DNA of 64,000 nt from Fidelibacterota bacterium (GTDB taxonomy: Bacteria; Fidelibacterota; UBA8477; JABMPR01), in NCBI GenBank assembly GCA_021734255.1, contig JAIPJM010000004.1:65345-129344 (forward strand), read 5' to 3'. This document shows, piece by piece, positions 55,774-64,000 of the stretch. The notes below the pieces were generated by a model. The model saw only the letters and a list, made by a program, of their open reading frames with translations. It ran no database searches and was not told the origin of the DNA. The first letter of the stretch is position 1. Each line of letters begins with the position of its first letter. Both the position numbers and the translations under genes were made by a program.

Positions 55774-56889
55774 ATGCAATTCATTGATTTGGCCAAGCAG
55801 CAGCGTCTGATCAAGGACAAGATCGACCAACGGATACAGGATGTACTGGCCCACGGAAAATATATCATGGGACCGGAAATTCGGGAGATGGAAGCCCAAC
55901 TGGCAGACTATGTTGGAGTCAAGCATTGCGTCAGCTGTGCATCAGGAACAGATGCCTTACTCATGCCGCTCCTGGCCTGGGGCATCGGACCGGGTGATGC
56001 CGTATTTACCACACCTTTTACTTTTATCGCCACGGCTGAAGTGATCCAGTTACTGGGGGCCACCCCGGTGTTTGTGGACATCGATCGGACAAGCTATAAT
56101 ATTGATCCCACGCTTCTGGATGAGGCTATAGAAACGGTCATCGCTGAGGGAAAGCTGAAGCCTAAAGCCATCATCCCCGTTGATCTCTTCGGCCTCCCGG
56201 CTGATTATCCGGCTATTGAAGCCATCGCTCAAAAATATGATATCAAATTGTTGGAAGATGCAGCCCAAGGCTTTGGCGGCCAGATCGGCGACAAATTAGC
56301 CTGTAGCTTTGGTGATGCCGCTTCTACTTCTTTCTTTCCAGCCAAGCCGCTGGGATGCTATGGTGATGGTGGCGCTATTTTTACCGATGATGACGATCTT
56401 TATGAAAAACTGGTCTCCATCCGTGTCCATGGTAAGGGCGGCGACAAATATGACAATGTGCGCATCGGTCTGAATGGCCGCATGGATACCCTTCAGGCCG
56501 CCATTGTTCTGGAAAAGTTTCAGCTTTTTCCCAACGAGGTGACCCTGAGAAATAAAGTAGCCAAGTCCTATAATGAAAAATTAGCTGGTGTGGTGGTGAC
56601 ACCAAGTGTTCCGGATGGCTATCTTTCATCCTGGGCCCAGTACTCCATTCTGGCCAAGGATGCCGAGGACAGGCAGACAATTCAGTCAAAATTAAAAGCA
56701 GCAGACATCCCTTCAGCTATCTATTATCCTAAATCACTGCATCAGCAGACGGCTTTTGCCCATCTGGGGCTGGGCGCCGGGGATTTTCCAGTCAGTGAAG
56801 AGATGAGTCAGCGCATCTTCAGTTTGCCCATGTATCCTTACCTCGAGGAACAAGATATAAAAACCATAACTGAGGTTTTGAAAAGTTAG
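55774..56889 (+). CDS. DegT/DnrJ/EryC1/StrS-family PLP-dependent sugar aminotransferase (WbpE/ArnB-like).
   Basis: YIMGPEIREMEAQLADYVGVKHCVSCASGTDAL and overall length and fold pattern of DegT aminotransferases. Confidence 0.85.
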   Translation: MQFIDLAKQQRLIKDKIDQRIQDVLAHGKYIMGPEIREMEAQLADYVGVKHCVSCASGTDALLMPLLAWGIGPGDAVFTTPFTFIATAEVIQLLGATPVFVDIDRTSYNIDPTLLDEAIETVIAEGKLKPKAIIPVDLFGLPADYPAIEAIAQKYDIKLLEDAAQGFGGQIGDKLACSFGDAASTSFFPAKPLGCYGDGGAIFTDDDDLYEKLVSIRVHGKGGDKYDNVRIGLNGRMDTLQAAIVLEKFQLFPNEVTLRNKVAKSYNEKLAGVVVTPSVPDGYLSSWAQYSILAKDAEDRQTIQSKLKAADIPSAIYYPKSLHQQTAFAHLGLGAGDFPVSEEMSQRIFSLPMYPYLEEQDIKTITEVLKS

Positions 56890-56900
56890 TGGTATAGTCA

Positions 56901-56913
56901 AATGTCCAAAGTC
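56901..56913. repeat. Left arm of a perfect 13-bp inverted repeat flanking the four-helix-bundle gene.
   Basis: aatgtccaaagtc here, gactttggacatt at 57326..57338. Also a short tandem agtcaaa x3 adjacent. Confidence 0.7.
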
Positions 56914-56943
56914 AAAAGTCAAAAGTTCTGAGTTGGGAGTCCC

Positions 56944-57312
56944 TTGGCTAAGGTACAAAGATTTGAGGAATTACGAATTTGGATAGAAGCCAGAGCCCTC
57001 GTCAATGAAGTATATTCGGGCCTGGAAACAAGTGACAAAGGATCGAAAGACTGGGGGTTTAGAAGCCAAATCCAGCAGGCTGCCATTTCAATAATGAATA
57101 ATATTGCTGAGGGGTTTGAAAGGAATTCTGACAAAGATTTTGCTAGATTTCTTGATATGGCTAAAGCCTCATGTGGCGAGGTTCGGAGCATGCTATATCT
57201 TGCGGAAGATCAACAATACTTAGAAAGTAGAATGGCATCAGAGCTGAGAACGAAATCTGAACACATATCTAAGGGAATAGCCACACTAGCAAAACACCTT
57301 AGATCGTCCTAG
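56944..57312 (+). CDS. Four-helix-bundle protein (23S rRNA intervening-sequence-protein family).
   Basis: LRIWIEARALVNEVY...FERNSDKDFARFLDMAKASCGEVRSMLYLA matches the IVS-protein / four-helix-bundle family (TIGR02436-like). Confidence 0.75.
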   Translation: MAKVQRFEELRIWIEARALVNEVYSGLETSDKGSKDWGFRSQIQQAAISIMNNIAEGFERNSDKDFARFLDMAKASCGEVRSMLYLAEDQQYLESRMASELRTKSEHISKGIATLAKHLRSS

Positions 57313-57325
57313 TGGTTCTACTTGT

Positions 57326-57338
57326 GACTTTGGACATT
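57326..57338. repeat. Right arm of the 13-bp inverted repeat flanking the four-helix-bundle gene.
   Basis: gactttggacatt is the reverse complement of 56901..56913. Confidence 0.7.
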
Positions 57339-57393
57339 AGACTTTAGACTCATTTATTTGACGGTAAAAAAAGTAGAGAATTAGAGGAAATAC

Positions 57394-58953
57394 ATGGAGA
57401 AGAAAGTATGCGTAGTGGGAGCCGGTCGTTGGGGGACCAATCATATTAAAACCCTGAATGGCTTAGGAGTGCTTGGCGGTATCGTGGAGAGCCGTGACGA
57501 TCGGCGAGATGAATTGCAGGAACTCTTTCCAGACGTACCCCTGTTCAATACCGTGACAGATGTACCCCTGGATGATTTCGATGGCTTTACAGTAGCAACG
57601 CCAGCAGAGACCCATGTCGATGTGGGCTCATACCTGTTGGAAAATGGGAAACACGTACTCATTGAAAAACCCATCGCCCTGAATACCAAAGATGCTCTGC
57701 ACTTGAAACAACTGGCAGATAAAAACGAAGTCAACCTCATGGTTGGCCATGTCTTGTTGTTCCATCCGGCTATCATCAAGATCAAAGAGCTCATCGAATC
57801 AGGTAAGATCGGCAAGCTGCAGTATATCTACAGCAATCGTGTGAATCTCGGGACGGTCAGAACGGAAGAGAATATTCTCTGGAGTTTTGCCCCCCATGAC
57901 ATATCCATCTTTGAATATTTCATCGGTGCTAATCCAGTTGAAGTGGTGAGCCGCGGTGGTGCATTTTTAACCCCCGGTATTCATGATACAACCATGACCA
58001 CCCTGACCTACCCTGACAATGTGGTGGGTCATATCTTTGTGAGCTGGTTGCATCCCTTCAAAGAACATCGCATGGTCATCATCGGCTCTGGCGGTATGAT
58101 CTCCTTTGAGGATAGTTCCCAGGAGAAGGATATCCTGTTCTATGAGAAGGGGATCGACTGGATCCAGGGCGAACCCATCACACGGGATGGCCCTACCGAA
58201 GTGATCCCCTATGAGAAAGGGTTCCCTTTGACCAATGAACTGCAATATTTCCTGGATCACCTGGATGGCAGCAAAATAGAGATCGCTGATGGTCAGAATG
58301 CCTATGATGTGCTGGATGTGTTGGAAAAGGCGACAATTTCTCTGCAGGGTAAAGCCAATGGGGTCAAACAGGAGGACGCCAGCTCAAAAAAATTCTTCCT
58401 CCACGCCACGAGTGAGGTCGATGCGGGTGTGGACGTGGGTGAAGGGACCAAGATCTGGCACTACTCCCATATTCAGAGTGGCTCGACCCTTGGAAAAAAT
58501 GTCTCTATCGGCCAGAACGTAAACGTAGGCAATAATGTGAAGATCGGCAACAGCGTCAAGATTCAGAATAATGTGTCGGTCTACGAGGGAGTTGAGTTGG
58601 AGGATTATGTTTTCTGTGGACCCTCCATGGTCTTTACCAATATTCAGCGTCCCCGTTCTGAATTCCCTCAGCGCGGAACGGAGTTCTATGCCAAGACCCT
58701 GGTGAAGAAAAGTGCCAGTATCGGTGCCAATGCCACCATTGTCTGTGGCACGACCATCGGTGAGTATGCCTTTATCGGTGCCGGTACGGTGGTCACCAAA
58801 GATGTCCCGGCCTATGCCATGGTCGTCGGTAATCCTGGCCGCATCATTGGTTGGGTAGACAAAAAAGGCTTCAAACTCACCTTCGATGCATCAGGGCTGA
58901 GTGAGTGCAAGAATTATCGCTTATCAGATGATAAAGTCGAGTTTTTAGGTTAG
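57394..58953 (+). CDS. Fusion of a Gfo/Idh/MocA-family NAD-dependent sugar oxidoreductase (WbpB-like) with a hexapeptide-repeat N-acetyltransferase (WbpD/PglD-like).
   Basis: N-terminal Rossmann motif KVCVVGAGRWGTNHI and a GFO_IDH_MocA core. C-terminal left-handed beta-helix hexapeptides (GKNVSIGQNVNVGNNVKIGNSVKIQNNVSV). Confidence 0.75.
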   Translation: MEKKVCVVGAGRWGTNHIKTLNGLGVLGGIVESRDDRRDELQELFPDVPLFNTVTDVPLDDFDGFTVATPAETHVDVGSYLLENGKHVLIEKPIALNTKDALHLKQLADKNEVNLMVGHVLLFHPAIIKIKELIESGKIGKLQYIYSNRVNLGTVRTEENILWSFAPHDISIFEYFIGANPVEVVSRGGAFLTPGIHDTTMTTLTYPDNVVGHIFVSWLHPFKEHRMVIIGSGGMISFEDSSQEKDILFYEKGIDWIQGEPITRDGPTEVIPYEKGFPLTNELQYFLDHLDGSKIEIADGQNAYDVLDVLEKATISLQGKANGVKQEDASSKKFFLHATSEVDAGVDVGEGTKIWHYSHIQSGSTLGKNVSIGQNVNVGNNVKIGNSVKIQNNVSVYEGVELEDYVFCGPSMVFTNIQRPRSEFPQRGTEFYAKTLVKKSASIGANATIVCGTTIGEYAFIGAGTVVTKDVPAYAMVVGNPGRIIGWVDKKGFKLTFDASGLSECKNYRLSDDKVEFLG

Positions 58954-58965
58954 AGAAATGTATTG

Positions 58966-59450
58966 CTCCTCGCAGCGGCGCCCGCCTGCGTATAACTCTG
59001 TGCGGGCAGGCAAGGCTGCAAGAGTATCAAGTAATATTGGATTGATAGGAGATAATCGCAAAAAAGAGCTACTGATAACACAATTTCGAGCCCCGCATTA
59101 TGCGGGGCGAGAAAACCCAATACTATGACAAGCCAGCGAACTTATTTTACATACATACTTTCGAACAAAAACCGACGACTCTATGTTGGCATGACAAATG
59201 ACCTGGATAGGAGAATCGAGGAGCACAAGACAAGCAAAAAGGGATTCGCAGCAGCTTACAAAATGACAAAGCTGGTCTATTATGAAACATTTCCTGGTCC
59301 CAATGAAGCCCTGAGTCGCGAATCGATTATTAAGAAATGGCGAAGAGAGAAAAAAATCGCGTTGATCGAGTCTGTGAATCCAAATTGGCAAGCGCTTGAA
59401 ACGGATGATGGTGCTGGGATTTCTCCCCCGCAACTGGCGGGGTCGAAATT
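58966..59450 (+). mobile_element. GIY-YIG mini-element copy A (long form: ~130-bp 5' leader repeat, 5' hairpin motif, ORF, 3' hairpin motif).
   Basis: The 5' leader cctcgcagcggcgcccgcctgcgtataactctgtgcgggcaggc...acacaatttcgagccccgcattatgcggggcgagaaaacccaa is near-identical to 63138..63298. The 3' motif gggatttctcccccgcaactggcggggtcgaaat is shared with three other copies. Confidence 0.55.
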
Positions 59451-59481
59451 ACATCAATCGAATCACGAAAATCGCAGATGA
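59125..59481 (+). CDS. GIY-YIG nuclease superfamily small protein (paralog 1 of 3).
   Basis: YFTYILSNKNRRLYVGMTNDLDRRIEEHK carries the GIY-YIG core with conserved Arg and Glu. 118 aa. Confidence 0.8.
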   Translation: MTSQRTYFTYILSNKNRRLYVGMTNDLDRRIEEHKTSKKGFAAAYKMTKLVYYETFPGPNEALSRESIIKKWRREKKIALIESVNPNWQALETDDGAGISPPQLAGSKLHQSNHENRR

Positions 59482-59505
59482 TTTTGAACTAAAACGAGAT
59501 CATAG

Positions 59506-60510
59506 TTGAGCAAAATATTAGTAACAGGAGCCGCTGGATTTATTGGATTTCATTTATCTAAAAGACTGATGAATGATGGTCATGAGATCTGGGGTATCGA
59601 TAATCTGAATGACTACTATGATCCAGGCTTAAAAAAAGCCCGCCTGGCAGAAATAGATGACTCAGGCTTTCAGTTTCACCGATTCGATCTTCAGGACCAT
59701 GGGCGAGTCCAGCAGCTTTTCGCTGAGTTTAAGCCGGAGATCGTGATCCACCTGGCGGCTCAGGCCGGTGTGCGTTACTCCCTGGAGAACCCCCGCTCCT
59801 ATATCGAATCCAACCTGGATGGATTTTTCAACATCCTGGAAGCCAGCAAACAGAATGGTGTGGAGACCTTTCTGTATGCCTCTTCCAGCTCCGTCTATGG
59901 CAATAGTGAGGACACGCCCTTTTCAACCGAAGATCGGGTTGACTATCCAGTTTCGCTGTATGCTGCTACTAAAAAATCCAACGAGCTCATCGCTCATACC
60001 TACAGCCATCTCTATAATATGACGACGGTTGGTTTGCGCTTTTTTACCGTGTATGGTCCCTGGGGCCGTCCCGATATGGCTTATTATTTCTTTACCAAAG
60101 CTATTTTGGAGGGGAAACCCATCAAGCTGTTCAATCAGGGGAAGAACCTGCGGGATTATACCTATATCGATGATATTATCGAGAGTATCAAGCGTATCCT
60201 GGATAACCGAGCAGCATTGGAAGCAGGTGGTGCTTCAGCATCCCTTGCAGAACAGCGCAGTCCCTATTATCATGTATTCAATATTGGTGGTGATCGTTCC
60301 GTCTCTGTCCTCGACTTTGTAAAAACACTGGAAGGCCATATAGGCAAAGCAGCCAGAACCGAACTGGTCGAGTTCCAGCCCGGTGACGTATTCAAGACCC
60401 AGGCGGACACAAGCGCTCTCCAGAAATTCACTGATTTTAAACCTCGCATCGCACTAGACGAAGGATTAGCTCATTTTGTGCAATGGTACAGAGACTATCA
60501 TGGGAAGTGA
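59506..60510 (+). CDS. NAD-dependent epimerase, UDP-glucuronate 4-epimerase-like.
   Basis: MSKILVTGAAGFIGFHLSKRL...IWGIDNLNDYYDPGLKKARL and the YxxxK SDR active site (YAATKKSNE). Confidence 0.8.
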   Translation: MSKILVTGAAGFIGFHLSKRLMNDGHEIWGIDNLNDYYDPGLKKARLAEIDDSGFQFHRFDLQDHGRVQQLFAEFKPEIVIHLAAQAGVRYSLENPRSYIESNLDGFFNILEASKQNGVETFLYASSSSVYGNSEDTPFSTEDRVDYPVSLYAATKKSNELIAHTYSHLYNMTTVGLRFFTVYGPWGRPDMAYYFFTKAILEGKPIKLFNQGKNLRDYTYIDDIIESIKRILDNRAALEAGGASASLAEQRSPYYHVFNIGGDRSVSVLDFVKTLEGHIGKAARTELVEFQPGDVFKTQADTSALQKFTDFKPRIALDEGLAHFVQWYRDYHGK

Positions 60511-60580
60511 ATTCCGGAGAATGTCGCCCAGTATTGATTAGTAGCTCATATGAAACAAATACAAACAATGATGTGAGGGT

Positions 60581-60953
60581 GACACAATTTCGAGCCCCGC
60601 ATTATGCGGGGCGAGAAAACCCAAAACTATGACAAAGCAGCGACGTTATTTTACATACATCCTCTCGAACAGAAACCGACGCCTGTATGTGGGCATGACA
60701 AATGACCTTAATAGAAGATTGAAAGAGCACAGAATCGGCAAAAAGGGATTTGCGGCTGCCTACAGAATGACTCAACTCGTGTACTTTGAAATTTTTCCAG
60801 GTCCTTTTCAAGCAATGAGGCGTGAATCTGAGATCAAAAAGTGGCGCCGGGAGAAAAAGATTGCATTGATCGAGTCAGTGAACCCACATTGGGAGGATTT
60901 GGAAATTGGCGATGGTTCTGGGATTTCTCCCCCGCAACTGGCGGGGTCGAAAT
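60581..60953 (+). mobile_element. GIY-YIG mini-element copy B (short form without the long leader).
   Basis: 5' acacaatttcgagccccgcattatgcggggcgagaaaacccaaaactatgacaaag. 3' gggatttctcccccgcaactggcggggtcgaaatc. Confidence 0.55.
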
Positions 60954-60988
60954 CACATCAGTCAAATTTTGAAACAGAGGTAAAGTAA
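60629..60988 (+). CDS. GIY-YIG nuclease superfamily small protein (paralog 2).
   Basis: YFTYILSNRNRRLYVGMTNDLNRRLKEHR. About 65% identical to paralog 1. Confidence 0.8.
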   Translation: MTKQRRYFTYILSNRNRRLYVGMTNDLNRRLKEHRIGKKGFAAAYRMTQLVYFEIFPGPFQAMRRESEIKKWRREKKIALIESVNPHWEDLEIGDGSGISPPQLAGSKSHQSNFETEVK

Positions 60989-62049
60989 TGGCAAAAAAAA
61001 TAATAGTCACCGGCGGTGCCGGCTTCATCGGAAGCAACTTCATTCTCAAGCAGATCAATGAAACAGCGAACGAGATCTTGAATCTAGATAAATTAACCTA
61101 CGCCGGGAATCTGGATAACCTCGCTTCTGTTGCGGATCATGCCCGCTATCAATTTGTGGAAGGCGATATTACCGACAAAGAGCTGGTTCAGAGTCTGGTT
61201 CAGGGTTTTCAACCCGATGGTATCGTCCATTTTGCAGCCGAGTCCCACGTGGACCGCTCCATTGATGGACCCATGCCTTTCATCATGACCAATGTGGTGG
61301 GAACGGCCAATTTACTGGATGTGACCTACCGCTACTGGAAAGATCTGGAAGTAGCTCGCAAAGCAGATTTCCGCTTCCTGCATGTCTCCACAGATGAGGT
61401 CTTCGGGTCCCTGGGAATGGATGATGTGTTTAAAATTGATACGCCTTACGACCCCAGCTCACCCTATTCAGCCTCAAAGGCTGGCTCCGATCATCTGGTC
61501 CGAGCCTGGGGGCGCACCTTTGATTTCCCGGTGCTTATCACCAACTGCACCAACAACTACGGTCCCTTTCAATTTCCTGAAAAGCTGATCCCGCTGGTGA
61601 CCATCAACGCCCTGGCAGGCAAAGAACTGCCCATCTACGGAACCGGTGAGAATATCAGGGACTGGCTCCATGTGGAAGATCACTGTGATGCCATCTATTC
61701 GGTTTTCAGGGATGGTAAGGTGGGGGACACCTACCTGGTCGGTGGTGAAGAAGAAGTCACCAATTTGCGGGTGGTCCAAACCATCTGTGATGTGCTGGAT
61801 GAGATCAGACCCACTGCCTCGGGAAAAAGTTACCGGGAGCAGATCACCTTTGTGGCTGATAGACCGGGCCATGACCTGCGGTATGCCATGGACATCAGCA
61901 AGATCCGAGATGAACTTGGCTGGCGTCCCAGTAAGGATTTTGCGGCTGGTTTAAAGCACACCATTGAATGGTACCTGGCCAACGAGCCTTGGTGGCGGAA
62001 GCTGCAGGAAAAGAAGATCTATGAGCAACAAAGGCTAGGTACTAAATAG
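60988..62049 (+). CDS. rfbB: dTDP-glucose 4,6-dehydratase.
   Basis: MAKKIIVTGGAGFIGSNFI..., YASTDEVFGS, YSASKAGSDHLV (YxxxK). Typical RmlB length. Confidence 0.9.
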   Translation: MAKKIIVTGGAGFIGSNFILKQINETANEILNLDKLTYAGNLDNLASVADHARYQFVEGDITDKELVQSLVQGFQPDGIVHFAAESHVDRSIDGPMPFIMTNVVGTANLLDVTYRYWKDLEVARKADFRFLHVSTDEVFGSLGMDDVFKIDTPYDPSSPYSASKAGSDHLVRAWGRTFDFPVLITNCTNNYGPFQFPEKLIPLVTINALAGKELPIYGTGENIRDWLHVEDHCDAIYSVFRDGKVGDTYLVGGEEEVTNLRVVQTICDVLDEIRPTASGKSYREQITFVADRPGHDLRYAMDISKIRDELGWRPSKDFAAGLKHTIEWYLANEPWWRKLQEKKIYEQQRLGTK

Positions 62050-62107
62050 TAGTAATTGACAGGGTGGCTGCCCATAAGGGAATTGTGCAAAGCAAGAATC
62101 AGGATTG

Positions 62108-62280
62108 ACACTATTTCGAGCCCTGCAAGACGCAGGGGCGAGAAAACCCAGAATTATAGCAAAGCATAACACAGCGATCACATACATGAATCGAGTCAAA
62201 GCAGCTAAATCAGGGACAGCACGAAACGAGCAATTACTTTGAGATTTCTCCCCCGCAACTGGCGGGGTCGAAATTAGATT
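62108..62280 (+). mobile_element. Miniature ORF-less derivative of the GIY-YIG element (copy C).
   Basis: Retains a diverged 5' motif (cactatttcgagccctgcaagacgcaggggcgagaaaacccagaattatagcaaag) and an intact 3' motif (gagatttctcccccgcaactggcggggtcgaaatt). Only ~80 bp of non-coding sequence lies between them. Confidence 0.5.
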
Positions 62281-62352
62281 ATTACGGCTTTGAAATTGGC
62301 TACCTTGTTGGCATGAACTTATGAATACTGAACATGAAATTGGGAGATTAAA

Positions 62353-63135
62353 ATGAAGGGCATCATACTAGCAGGCGGTTCAGGAACACGTCTACACCCC
62401 CTGACCAGAGTGGTTTCTAAACAGCTGCTCCCCATCTACAATAAACCGATGATCTACTATCCCTTGTCCACCTTACTGTATGCCGGGATCACAGAGATTC
62501 TGATCATCTCAACGCCAACGGACCTGCCACGCTTTGAGGATCTGTTGGGTGATGGCAGCAAAATTGGCGCAAAACTGTCCTATAAGGTTCAACCCAGTCC
62601 CGATGGCCTGGCTCAGGCCTTTATTCTGGGTGAAGAATTTATAGGGGATGATGATGTCTGCCTTATTCTCGGTGATAATATCTTTTTTGGGCACGGTCTG
62701 ATCCGTATGCTGAAAGAAAGCACGCAGATCGTGGAGGAGCAAAAGGAAGCCGTTGTCTTTGGTTATCACGTGGAAGATCCCCAGCGCTACGGTGTGGTCG
62801 ATTTTGATGAGAATGGAATGGCCCTGTCCATTGAGGAGAAACCGGAGCAGCCAAAAAGTAAATATGCTGTGGTCGGCCTGTATTTTTATCCCAATTCCGT
62901 CGTGGATGTAGCGAAAAAGTTAAAGCCATCTCCTCGTGGTGAGTTGGAGATCACCGATGTAAATAAGATTTACCTGAACCAGAAATCCTTGAATGTGCAG
63001 ATCATGCGCCGGGGCTTCGCCTGGCTGGATACGGGCACTTTTGACTCATTATTGGAAGCGTCCCAGTTCGTCCAGACCCTGGAAAAACGCCAGGGGCTCC
63101 AGATCGCTGACATTGAGAATATCCTAGAAGATTAA
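62353..63135 (+). CDS. rfbA: Glucose-1-phosphate thymidylyltransferase.
   Basis: [38 protein letters not shown] and downstream RmlA blocks. 260 aa, slightly short at the C-terminus. Confidence 0.9.
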
Positions 63136-63137
63136 TA

Positions 63138-63627
63138 CCCCCTCGCAACGGCGCCCGCCTGCGTATAACTCTGTGCGGGCAGGCAGAGGCGCAAGAGTGT
63201 CAAGTAATATTGGATTGATAGGAGATAATCGCAAAAAAGAGCTACTGATAACACAATTTCGAGCCCCGCATTATGCGAGGCGAGAAAACCCAATACCATG
63301 ACAAGTCAGCGAACTTATTTTACATACATCCTCTCGAACAAAAATCGACGCCTATATGTTGGCATGACCAACGACATGAACAGAAGATTGACAGAGCACA
63401 GGACTGACAAAAAAGGGTTTGCCGCTGCCTACAAGATGACCAAACTGGTATACTACGAAACGTTTCCAAGTCCGAATGGTGCCTTGAGGAGAGAGTCTGA
63501 GATAAAGAAGTGGCGAAGAGAGAAAAAGATTACATTGATCGAGTCTGTAAACCCGAATTGGGAAGAGTTAGTGGTTGAGGACGGTAGCGGGATTTCTCCC
63601 CCGCCACTGGCGGGGTCGAAATTAAGT
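63138..63627 (+). mobile_element. GIY-YIG mini-element copy D (long form, like copy A).
   Basis: Leader ccctcgcaacggcgcccgcctgcgtataactctgtgcgggcaggc...acacaatttcgagccccgcattatgcgaggcgagaaaacccaataccatgacaag. 3' gggatttctcccccgccactggcggggtcgaaatt. Confidence 0.55.
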
Positions 63628-63639
63628 AATGAGAATTAG
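63298..63639 (+). CDS. GIY-YIG nuclease superfamily small protein (paralog 3).
   Basis: YFTYILSNKNRRLYVGMTNDMNRRLTEHR and a conserved C-terminal GISPPPLAGSK. Confidence 0.8.
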   Translation: MTSQRTYFTYILSNKNRRLYVGMTNDMNRRLTEHRTDKKGFAAAYKMTKLVYYETFPSPNGALRRESEIKKWRREKKITLIESVNPNWEELVVEDGSGISPPPLAGSKLSNEN

Positions 63640-63649
63640 GAAACCATCC

Positions 63650-64000
63650 AATGAAATTTAAAGTCACCCCGCAATCCATTCCAGATGTCCTGCTCATCGA
63701 GCCCACAGTGTTTGAAGATGAGCGTGGATACTTCAAGGAATGCTATCAGCAACAAGATTTTGAAACCTTCCTCCCCGGTGTGCGCTTTGTGCAGGAAAAT
63801 GAATCAAAGTCCTCAAAAGGCGTCCTGCGCGGTTTACATTTTCAAAAAGAGCCTCACGGTCAAGCCAAGCTTATTCGCGTGGTTCAAGGAAAGATTTGGG
63901 ATGTGGCGGTAGATATACGCCGAGATTCACCTACTTTTAAATCGTTTGTTGGTGTAGAACTATCGGCTGAGAACCATGCGCAGTTATTTATTCCTAAAGG
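63650..64000 (+). CDS. rfbC: dTDP-4-dehydrorhamnose 3,5-epimerase, 3'-truncated by the window end.
   Basis: ATG at 63650. MKFKVTPQSIPDVLLIEPTVFEDERGYFKECYQ...LRGLHFQKEPHGQAKLIRVVQGKIWDVAVDIR matches RmlC. Not in the ORF track because no stop occurs within the window. Confidence 0.8.

Follow-up and report, generated by a model that had tools for sequence, protein, structure and literature searches.

The 64,000-nt stretch of contig JAIPJM010000004.1 from a Fidelibacterota bacterium that was analysed here (the window, whose numbering is used throughout) carries a nucleotide-sugar operon in which four consecutive gene junctions are occupied by related short cassettes. The flanking genes encode a WbpB-D-like oxidoreductase/acetyltransferase fusion (57394-58953), a short-chain dehydrogenase/reductase (SDR) epimerase (59506-60510), RfbB (60988-62049), RfbA (62353-63135) and RfbC (from 63651), and are preceded by a gene for a DegT aminotransferase (55774-56889), all on the plus strand. 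Copy A of the cassette lies in the WbpB-D|epimerase junction, B in epimerase|rfbB, C in rfbB|rfbA and D in rfbA|rfbC; A, B and D each hold an open reading frame (ORF) for a GIY-YIG protein, C holds none, and all four are on the plus strand. The original prediction, made by a model from the sequence alone, had placed four copies in these gaps, and their positions are borne out by core-pattern matches and by the Pfam matches of the ORFs, as are the gaps themselves by annotation of the flanking genes. A pattern search of the 64 kb located the 5' core TTTCGA-N(5-30)-GAGAAAA and the 3' core ATTTCTC-N(5-30)-TCGAAAT four times each, all on the plus strand and within 59.08-63.62 kb, against a chance expectation from shuffles of 0.03 and 0.06 respectively, and relaxed patterns gave zero matches to either core in the remaining ~59 kb. 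The copies are not an assembly artefact, because an independent Logan assembly from the same organism (L128; fetched loci are referred to by such numbers where they have to be told apart) is identical in content and is broken exactly inside the repeats. This contig (932 nt, corresponding over its whole length to window 62250-63181) starts in the 3' repeat of copy C and stops in the leader hairpin of copy D; since it terminates inside repeats at both sides, these repeats fragment assemblies.

The 5' motif reads in full ACACAATTTCGA-G-CCCCGCA-tta-TGCGGGG-C-GAGAAAACCC and the 3' motif GGGATTTCTC-CCCCGC-aactg-GCGGGG-TCGAAATTACAT. As the two are mutual reverse complements in their conserved parts, the ORF sits between terminal inverted repeats. 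The hairpin motifs that had been proposed as common to all four copies are therefore real, each core having been found four times, but they are inverted copies of one sequence and not two separate motifs. Each repeat is an imperfect palindrome: ATTTC/GAAAT forms a closing stem of 5 bp, next comes a 2x2 internal loop with GA/GA on one strand and TC/TC on its complement, and at the centre is an inner stem-loop. In the window the repeats fold as single-stranded DNA of either strand at -10.7 to -12.8 kcal/mol (z -3.5 to -5).

Copy A opens with a leader (58966-59075) common to A and D only, which has an imperfect hairpin of its own at ~58977-59012 (RNA fold -27.3 kcal/mol, z -1.75). Its 5' repeat (59078-59119; ACACAATTTCGA-G-CCCCGCA-tta-TGCGGGG-C-GAGAAAACCCA) folds as single-stranded DNA at -12.8 kcal/mol on the plus strand and -12.1 on the minus strand (z about -5), and is followed by the ORF for a 118-residue Slx1-like/UPF0213 GIY-YIG nuclease (59125-59481; PF01541 E 1.1e-15) and the 3' repeat (59418-59454; GATTTCTC-CCCCGC-aactg-GCGGGG-TCGAAATTACAT). 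Copy B has a 5' repeat at 60582-60623 (37/37 identical to copy A), a 119-residue ORF at 60629-60988 (PF01541 E 3.4e-15), whose TAA stop shares bases with the rfbB ATG (TAATG), and a 3' repeat at 60922-60958 with 0 mismatches. Copy D has a leader homologous to that of copy A (63138-63248), a 5' repeat at 63251-63292 with 1 mismatch, where a single G-to-A change leaves the stem mispaired, and a 113-residue GIY-YIG ORF at 63298-63639 (PF01541 E 1.2e-14); its 3' repeat (63591-63627) and a ~23-nt trailer, AATGAGAATTAGGAAACCATCCA, together span 63591-63650. The trailer stops at the rfbC ATG, contains a ribosome-binding-site-like AGGAAA and resembles the trailer of an element at the same junction in a related genome (L129). 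A GAAA-containing segment is found ~20-25 nt past the 3' repeat in every copy (CACGAAAATC, 59455-59480; TTTGAAACAG, 60959-60985; TTTGAAATTG, 62280-62305; TAGGAAACCA, 63628-63650) and in L129 (AGGAAATAAG, 1228-1254); in D and L129 it lies 7-8 nt upstream of the next ATG and has the look of a ribosome-binding site brought by the insertion.

Copy C (62085-62279; ~172 nt from repeat to repeat, 62108-62279) is an internal-deletion derivative made up of a ~22-nt left arm, a 5' repeat (62108-62150), an ORF remnant and a 3' repeat (62243-62279). It retains the two ends and, from the ORF, ~35 nt of 5' sequence in which the ATG has become ATA; the remainder is lost. The inner stem of the 5' repeat is compensatorily changed to CCCTGC/GCAGGG. 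The gap that it occupies opens with three consecutive in-frame stop codons, TAGTAGTAA, the first of which is rfbB's own. It is the one such copy in the window, with a colinear homolog at a different junction in L129. The view that copy C is a non-autonomous derivative resembling a miniature inverted-repeat transposable element (MITE) is supported by its two retained ends, its loss of the ORF and this L129 unit. The L129 unit also contains an intact 43-codon ORF (1108-1239), MTKYEAIITYSAKAKANELGVARNELRHWDFSPASGRVEIASR, and the homologous frame of copy C (window 62105-62242), …IAKHNTAITYMNRVKAAKSGTARNEQLL, has 11 of 28 residues in common with it; their ELGVARNEL stretch has a helix-turn-helix-like look which, with two sequences only, may mark a conserved mini-protein or be due to chance.

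The ~130-bp leader with a hairpin that A and D had been said to share is present, with 96% identity across 109 nt (copy A against 63141-63248). It has no match in 131 fetched loci apart from L128, from the same organism, and no sigma-70-like promoter site. The two leaders are near-identical despite the saturated synonymous divergence of the adjoining ORFs, and may be a regulatory leader, a tract of recent conversion or a small repeat in its own right.

All three ORFs score above the cutoff of 22.6 bits for the GIY-YIG family PF01541, at 54.7-58.1 bits (E 1e-15 to 1e-14). The catalytic residues (Tyr, Tyr, Arg, His and Glu; Y10, Y20/G22, R29/R30, H34 and E66) do not vary across 20 sequences. An Asn of an NPxW motif, N85, is likewise invariant in sequence and may or may not be the structural counterpart of the C-terminal catalytic Asn that is typical of the UvrC+ lineage and whose absence is a mark of the Slx1-like group (PMC1564403). 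In the AlphaFold2 model residues 1-94 form a confident GIY-YIG core of beta-beta-alpha-alpha-beta-alpha topology (predicted local distance difference test, pLDDT, 77-95), and residues 95-118 of copy A, whose codons lie in the 3' repeat, are modelled as a disordered tail (pLDDT below 50); every one of the proteins ends in ~25 residues (…GISPPQLAGSK…) that translate its 3' repeat. Among solved structures the nearest are those of two uncharacterised UPF0213 proteins, BH0048 and EF2693 (1zg2, E 1.1e-6; 1ywl, E 9e-4), and Foldseek ranks UPF0213 (1zg2) first, then Slx1, then the UvrC N-terminal domain. The predicted GIY-YIG fold is thus confirmed by Pfam, model and structure search alike, and in the proposed comparison with Slx1, UvrC and I-TevI the protein falls nearest to UPF0213 and Slx1, not I-TevI. 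With a single domain of 113-119 residues and no auxiliary domains, it has the make-up of the prokaryotic Slx1-like/UPF0213 group. The match to the group I intron endonuclease model TIGR01453 is sub-threshold (20.6 bits against a cutoff of 56.05), and no separate DNA-binding domain is seen in the copy A protein, which belongs to the 113-119-residue class and has a disordered tail. In viral contigs only distant giant-virus GIY-YIG proteins were matched, so that the family is not phage-borne, and PADLOC and PHROGs gave weak partial matches only and no known defence family. The family comprises 10,313 clusters (50% identity) at E<=1e-3 and 2,102 at E<=1e-10; among 60 independent representatives, 21 have termini resembling translated repeats, by a crude peptide count.

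Comparison of ORFs A, B and D indicates strong purifying selection (dN/dS 0.05-0.13) on old paralogs that have been kept functional, with saturated synonymous sites (dS 1.1-2.4). The proteins are 75-81% identical, higher than the 65-75% first given, and the saturation speaks against the description of the element as recently active. The ends behave differently: between A and B, 47 of 49 positions are identical at the 5' end (flanks included) and 43 of 45 at the 3' end, the ends overall being ~96-100% identical, and the identity profile shows ~100% islands at both ends versus 63-77% inside the ORF. Given that the ends are near-identical despite saturated ORF dS, they would appear either to be under far stronger constraint than the gene or to be homogenised between copies. 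Furthermore, the leaders of A and D are 96% identical over 109 nt versus 76% for their ORFs, a mosaic pattern that points to probable exchange between copies.

Related genomes supply both occupied and empty versions of the same junctions, as the proposed comparison of occupied and empty sites required. The closest relative, L131 (RfbA 92% identical), has an ATGA overlap at rfbB|rfbA, where the window has copy C in a gap of 303 nt, and TGA-t-ATG at rfbA|rfbC, where the window has copy D in a gap of 515 nt. The WbpB-D|epimerase junction, which holds copy A in 552 nt, is empty in L006 (28 nt). In L129 (RfbA 88% identical) the rfbA|rfbC junction contains a copy-C-like ORF-less unit (208 nt), and a different cassette encoding a four-helix-bundle protein, described below, lies upstream of rfbA in the rfbB|rfbA junction. 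The L129 unit aligns colinearly with copy C, starting in the left arm ~22 nt before the 5' repeat and continuing to the 3' end, the sole indel being within the 5' inner stem; as it lies in rfbA|rfbC and copy C in rfbB|rfbA, the same internally deleted form occupies different junctions in two genomes. The DegT|WbpB-D junction holds the four-helix-bundle cassette in the window and a GIY-YIG element in L006, L007, L008, L015, L017 and L018. The empty junctions in relatives speak against a fixed syntenic feature of the operon, the outcome that had been named as refuting mobility. A remnant of a GIY-YIG end was sought in the window's own DegT|WbpB-D junction, and no convincing alignment was obtained.

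Beyond the window, both ORF ends were read in 80 metagenome loci encoding relatives at 40-70% identity, together with Marinimicrobia relatives. The layout recurs, with the class consensus TGTCATTYCGA-[variable stem-loop]-GAGRAATC–ORF–GATTYCTC-[variable stem-loop]-TCGRAATGACA, the start codon following 0-12 nt after the 5' end and the 3' end often overlapping the end of the ORF, with the TGA stop within GAAATGACA. An initial filter for ends, an inner stem of >=4 bp, rejected obvious cases and was replaced by a closing-stem criterion. Enrichment was counted on 76 distinct loci with a strict canonical-end pattern: canonical ends occur at 3.5/kb in the 5' zones and 2.9/kb in the 3' zones, as opposed to 0.23-0.31/kb elsewhere in the same loci and ~0.03/kb in shuffled sequence, an enrichment of >10-fold beside the ORFs, and an adjacent end is present in 47 of the 76. 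In 36 of 62 units the half-site variant (ATTTC or ATTCC, for example) is the same at the two ends, versus 23.9 expected (p=0.0005), and in L025 the ends form a perfect 36-nt inverted repeat. The inner stems vary between genomes yet stay complementary: CCCCGCA/TGCGGGG and CCCTGC/GCAGGG in the window, CCC/GGG in L129, GGTC/GACC in L015, GGTCC/GGACC in L021 and C-GNA-G only in L006, L008 and L017. The C-terminal tails of homologs (GISRPxDSK, ADSSLRSE, KDFSLRSK, …VGMTNDK) are, as in the window, translated repeats, and the exact 3' repeat of the window, with the loop left free, was found without an adjacent ORF in metagenome-assembled genomes of Ignavibacteriales, Omnitrophota and Desulfobacteraceae. 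A related half-site variant, TGTCATCCTGAGC…GAAGGATC, adjoins family members in L027, L028 and L032. Gene callers often run ORFs through arrays of such repeats (L039 2725-3000, L050 990-1150, protein tails of the L270 type), and the resulting pseudo-peptides (VIPTEGRNLL, SFRPKGGICF, CHSDRREES, VILSAAKNL, ILRCAQDD, SLRSE, GMT) appear in hypothetical proteins of many phyla.

ORF-less derivatives recur as well. Units in which a spacer of 7-90 nt separates a 5'-type from a 3'-type end number 42 pairs at a gap of <=150 nt, and near-identical units are present three times each in L034 and L054 and twice each in L042, L043, L065, L070 and L086. In other genomes both ORF-less units and single ends occur in both orientations.

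With respect to insertion context, 21 of the 22 cassettes that lie between co-directional neighbours are co-oriented with them, so that the co-orientation reported for this operon holds generally. The same is not true of a preference for the nucleotide-sugar operon as a target: 98 proteins encoded beside the cassettes match 130 Pfam families, RecA, orotidine monophosphate (OMP) decarboxylase and restriction-modification subunits among them, and are unrelated in function, and the window and its relatives together have insertions in at least five junctions of unrelated sequence. Of 62 units, 56 begin with TGTC and 55 end with GACA, the positions immediately outside being biased towards T/A. The target-site duplication whose presence had been proposed for checking is lacking, abutting direct repeats being at chance frequency in these 62 units. 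When compared with empty sites, the inserted blocks in the window and in L129 take up the whole interval between the stop codon upstream and the ATG downstream and end in a ~25-nt trailer with a ribosome-binding-site-like GGAAA or GGAG; the extents first assigned to the copies therefore identified the right junctions, but the inserted blocks reach past the hairpins. We infer that selection has kept those insertions that preserve the expression of their neighbours.

The reading favoured here, to which a probability of about 0.68 is assigned, is that the copies are a selfish element acting at the level of DNA, in which a gene for a minimal Slx1-like GIY-YIG nuclease with a core of ~95 residues lies between palindromic inverted repeats and gives rise to ORF-less derivatives. 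It draws on what is directly observed: the architecture, its recurrence across lineages, the ORF-less derivatives, the presence and absence at junctions, purifying selection on the ORF, conservation of the ends, co-orientation and the lack of a terminator. The selfish mini-element family with a non-autonomous derivative that was originally proposed is upheld in this form by the empty junctions and the L129 unit, and not in its claim of recent activity. Slx1 is a structure-specific nuclease for branched DNA, and in the mechanism envisaged the nuclease would act on the palindromic ends as a hairpin, cruciform or duplex, as would fit its structure-specific relatives. Through breaks at the ends the element would be copied into new sites or spread to them by gene conversion, which would also keep the ends homogeneous within a genome, and ORF-less derivatives would be mobilised in trans. 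If no target-site duplication is made, the chemistry would not be of the DDE type. Insertions would survive mainly between co-directional genes, where they would be transcribed by read-through without terminating the operon, and the trailer would supply stop and ribosome-binding-site-like signals for the neighbours. A GGAG/GAGG Shine-Dalgarno sequence appears to lie within the right arm of the 5' repeat in most lineages, 4-12 nt before the ATG, and because of this location pairing of the ends could throttle translation of the nuclease.

Several points weigh against this reading. Transposition and cleavage are inferred, no event having been directly seen; the ORFs of the window are old paralogs and reflect no recent burst; the 62 units display no target-site duplication and no clear target motif; and the protein is without a separate DNA-binding domain. 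The inserted blocks exceed the repeat-to-repeat distance, with leaders of up to 110 nt and trailers of ~25 nt, so that simple cut-and-paste of terminal inverted repeats is inadequate, and 29 of the 76 loci are without a canonical end under the strict pattern. The minimal 21-28-nt ends of other lineages (ATTTC-GA-CC-GAA-GG-GA-GAAAT), of low stability under nearest-neighbour rules, are barely stable as hairpins; either such a palindrome is bound as a duplex by a multimer or special motifs are involved, tandem G.A pairs and C-GNA-G mini-hairpins being unusually stable in single-stranded DNA. Finally, the element at DegT|WbpB-D is syntenic in the clade of L006, L007, L015, L017 and L018 and tracks host divergence (GIY-YIG proteins 75-86% identical, DegT 85-92%), which is in keeping with long vertical inheritance and allows for some benefit to the host. 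As this copy diverges roughly with its host, individual insertions can persist for a long time.

A wider proposal is more tentative and is judged to fall somewhat short of even odds. It holds that the element is a distinct, unrecognised superfamily of prokaryotic mobile elements, in which a minimal nuclease mobilises hairpin-bearing inverted repeats and is the source of widespread palindromes resembling MITEs or repetitive extragenic palindromic (REP) sequences. In that case, the palindromes in Marinimicrobia, Ignavibacteriales, Omnitrophota, Desulfobacteraceae and many unclassified metagenome lineages may have a common source, and the element may be the GIY-YIG counterpart of REP/RAYT (REP-associated tyrosine transposase) and IS200/IS605 systems, without target-site duplication.

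The retention of the DegT|WbpB-D copy across a clade, with divergence tracking that of the host, raises the possibility of a domesticated repeat system like REP/RAYT, in which the palindromes would be host-useful intergenic punctuation (protecting mRNA 3' ends, tuning operon expression or serving as sites for nucleoid proteins) and the GIY-YIG protein a vertically kept housekeeping enzyme rather than a parasite. The strong purifying selection on old copies and the REP-like density (0.23-0.31/kb) at which ends are scattered through flanking sequence in other genomes are consistent with this, as is a 2006 survey of the superfamily in which the prokaryotic Slx1-like group is described as a minimal, mostly vertical, non-selfish nuclease (PMC1564403). 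Nevertheless, this explanation is unlikely: three paralogs and a dead copy are concentrated within 4.7 kb and the remaining 59 kb is free of them, the empty junctions of the closest relative are compact and functional, sister genomes carry unrelated cassette types at the same junctions, the neighbouring genes are unrelated in function and the stems are without RNA-type features.

Presence or absence between relatives, the GIY-YIG domain, the intergenic position between conserved genes and the weak sub-threshold match to TIGR01453 would all be compatible with free-standing site-specific homing endonuclease genes like the seg genes of T4, each copy homing to one cognate target and the shared motifs being co-converted flanks. 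This is improbable, given that the 113-119-residue protein has a disordered tail in place of a DNA-binding extension, that its TIGR01453 score of 20.6 bits lies far from the cutoff of 56 and its fold is closest to Slx1/UPF0213 and not I-TevI, that the five or more occupied junctions offer no single target, and that inverted-repeat ends and multi-copy ORF-less derivatives are not features of such genes.

Whether the ends act as DNA or RNA was addressed with 55 ORF-adjacent ends, in which G.U pairs account for 5 of 469 pairs in the sense strand and 10 of 469 in the antisense strand, and the two strands fold equally well (Wilcoxon p=0.53). None of eight hairpins in the window was called as an intrinsic terminator, their tails (TCGAAATTACAT and GAGAAAACCC) having no T-tract, and Rfam yielded no match for the window at gathering threshold and no relevant family for the region at E<=5 or for 12 loci rich in ORF-less units at E<=0.1. 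Since the stems are Watson-Crick, with no strand bias, no T-tract and no Rfam match, the evidence favours a DNA-level palindrome, and the domesticated RNA-level function offered as an option in the original prediction finds no support in the scarcity of G.U (1-2% of pairs), the equal folding, the missing terminator or Rfam. Folding z-scores of the inner stems were uninformative, many ends having an inner stem of 2 bp. An apparent four-way junction, with an outer helix AAUUUCGA/UCGAAAUU and an inner helix GAGAAAACCC/GGGAUUUCUC, is not independent evidence because such pairing follows automatically from inverted repeats; as a candidate for long-range RNA pairing it could not be separated from that property, and RNA signatures are absent. 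The least probable alternative is accordingly an RNA module, in which the hairpins or the four-way junction would mark a polycistronic mRNA for processing or stabilisation and so free or insulate the small ORF, as RNase III stems do around rRNA intervening sequences: all copies are co-oriented with transcription, the window repeats fold strongly as RNA (-16 to -20 kcal/mol), pairing of the two ends with each other would close the GA/GA and UC/UC internal loops into perfect pairs, and the family of the neighbouring four-helix-bundle cassette was first seen in rRNA intervening sequences, but the cross-pairing is automatic, G.U pairs are nearly absent and antisense folds are as good, ORF-less units and single ends lie in both orientations elsewhere, no Rfam family matches and the outer helix is not conserved in L015.

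The four-helix-bundle cassette lies in the window at 56893-57346 on the plus strand, with an ORF at 56944-57312 (122 residues) flanked by a 27-31-nt inverted repeat. Its product is a '23S rRNA intervening sequence protein' (PF05635, E 9e-31; TIGR02436), and the inverted repeat is rich in GACTTTGGAC/GTCCAAAGTC. The cassette is also found between sulfate-activation genes in L015 (3152-3508) and in L129 at 3-250, upstream of rfbA, where the window has copy C; GACTTTGGAC-like remnants are seen in the 'empty' L006 junction and after the L007 element. As both cassette types occupy the same junctions in sister genomes, they seem to turn over at the same operon junctions. Two further observations concern the relatives. 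In L131 (1060-1140) the rfbC frame diverges past ~50 codons and meets an early stop followed by a minus-strand gene, which may represent a truncated rfbC, a rearrangement or a chimeric contig. In the Marinimicrobia relative L015 (10031-16210) the polysaccharide operon is followed directly by phage-like genes (helix-turn-helix, RadC, DUF932, PD-(D/E)XK nuclease and terminase large subunit), which suggests a prophage or island inserted at the operon end.

The UPF0213/YhbQ-type family has solved structures and no assigned role, and is regarded as vertically inherited housekeeping. The link to inverted-repeat ends gives it a testable function, action on its own palindromic ends, and offers an origin for common intergenic palindromes that are often mistranslated as ORF tails (…SLRSE, …GMT, …RNDK). 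If the selfish, DNA-level reading is true, the nuclease would represent a class not yet found among the enzymes of bacterial insertion sequences, and, as a small enzyme specific for a structure or palindrome and directed to a defined DNA site, it could serve as a tool. At a practical level, such elements inflate gene calls and break short-read assemblies, as in L128, and they show that insertion into operon junctions as compact as ATGA or TGAtATG need not cause polar effects.

No description of a GIY-YIG protein combined with inverted repeats, MITEs or REP sequences was met in the literature searched, with subscription-only papers outside its scope, and the element shares some features with each of several known systems. 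Like the seg genes of T4-like phages, it is a GIY-YIG gene inserted between conserved genes and presumably spread by break repair; those genes, however, have DNA-binding modules, one target, no inverted-repeat ends and no ORF-less derivatives, and the present family is not in viral contigs. Copy C and the 42 ORF-less units resemble MITEs in being short and non-coding and in carrying the same terminal inverted repeats as the ORF-bearing copies, the units of several other genomes also in being multi-copy, and differ from them in the absence of a target-site duplication and in a presumed parent that encodes a GIY-YIG nuclease, not a DDE transposase. IS200/IS605 elements are similarly very small, with hairpins at both ends, no target-site duplication and a 5' hairpin overlapping the translation start signals; membership was rejected since they have an HUH-Y1 transposase and no terminal inverted repeats, whereas here the ends are inverted repeats and there is no HUH-Y1 TnpA ORF. 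In REP/RAYT and REPIN systems a small nuclease gene is again flanked by inverted palindromes, the repeats are also found as intergenic singlets and doublets, and the outer flanks are conserved while the inner stems vary. RAYTs are usually single-copy and vertical. In the present case the genes are multi-copy and position-polymorphic, the repeat head is TGTCA rather than GTAG and the flanked ORF is GIY-YIG only, with no HUH-Y1 (TnpA_REP) transposase, so that membership was likewise rejected in spite of the flanking inverted palindromes. The protein itself belongs with UPF0213 (YhbQ, BH0048, EF2693; COG2827), as indicated by the sequence and structure match to 1zg2, the single domain and the invariant Tyr, Tyr, Arg, His and Glu, but that family has been described as vertical and non-selfish, whereas here a clade of it sits between inverted repeats, is multi-copy and varies in position between related genomes.

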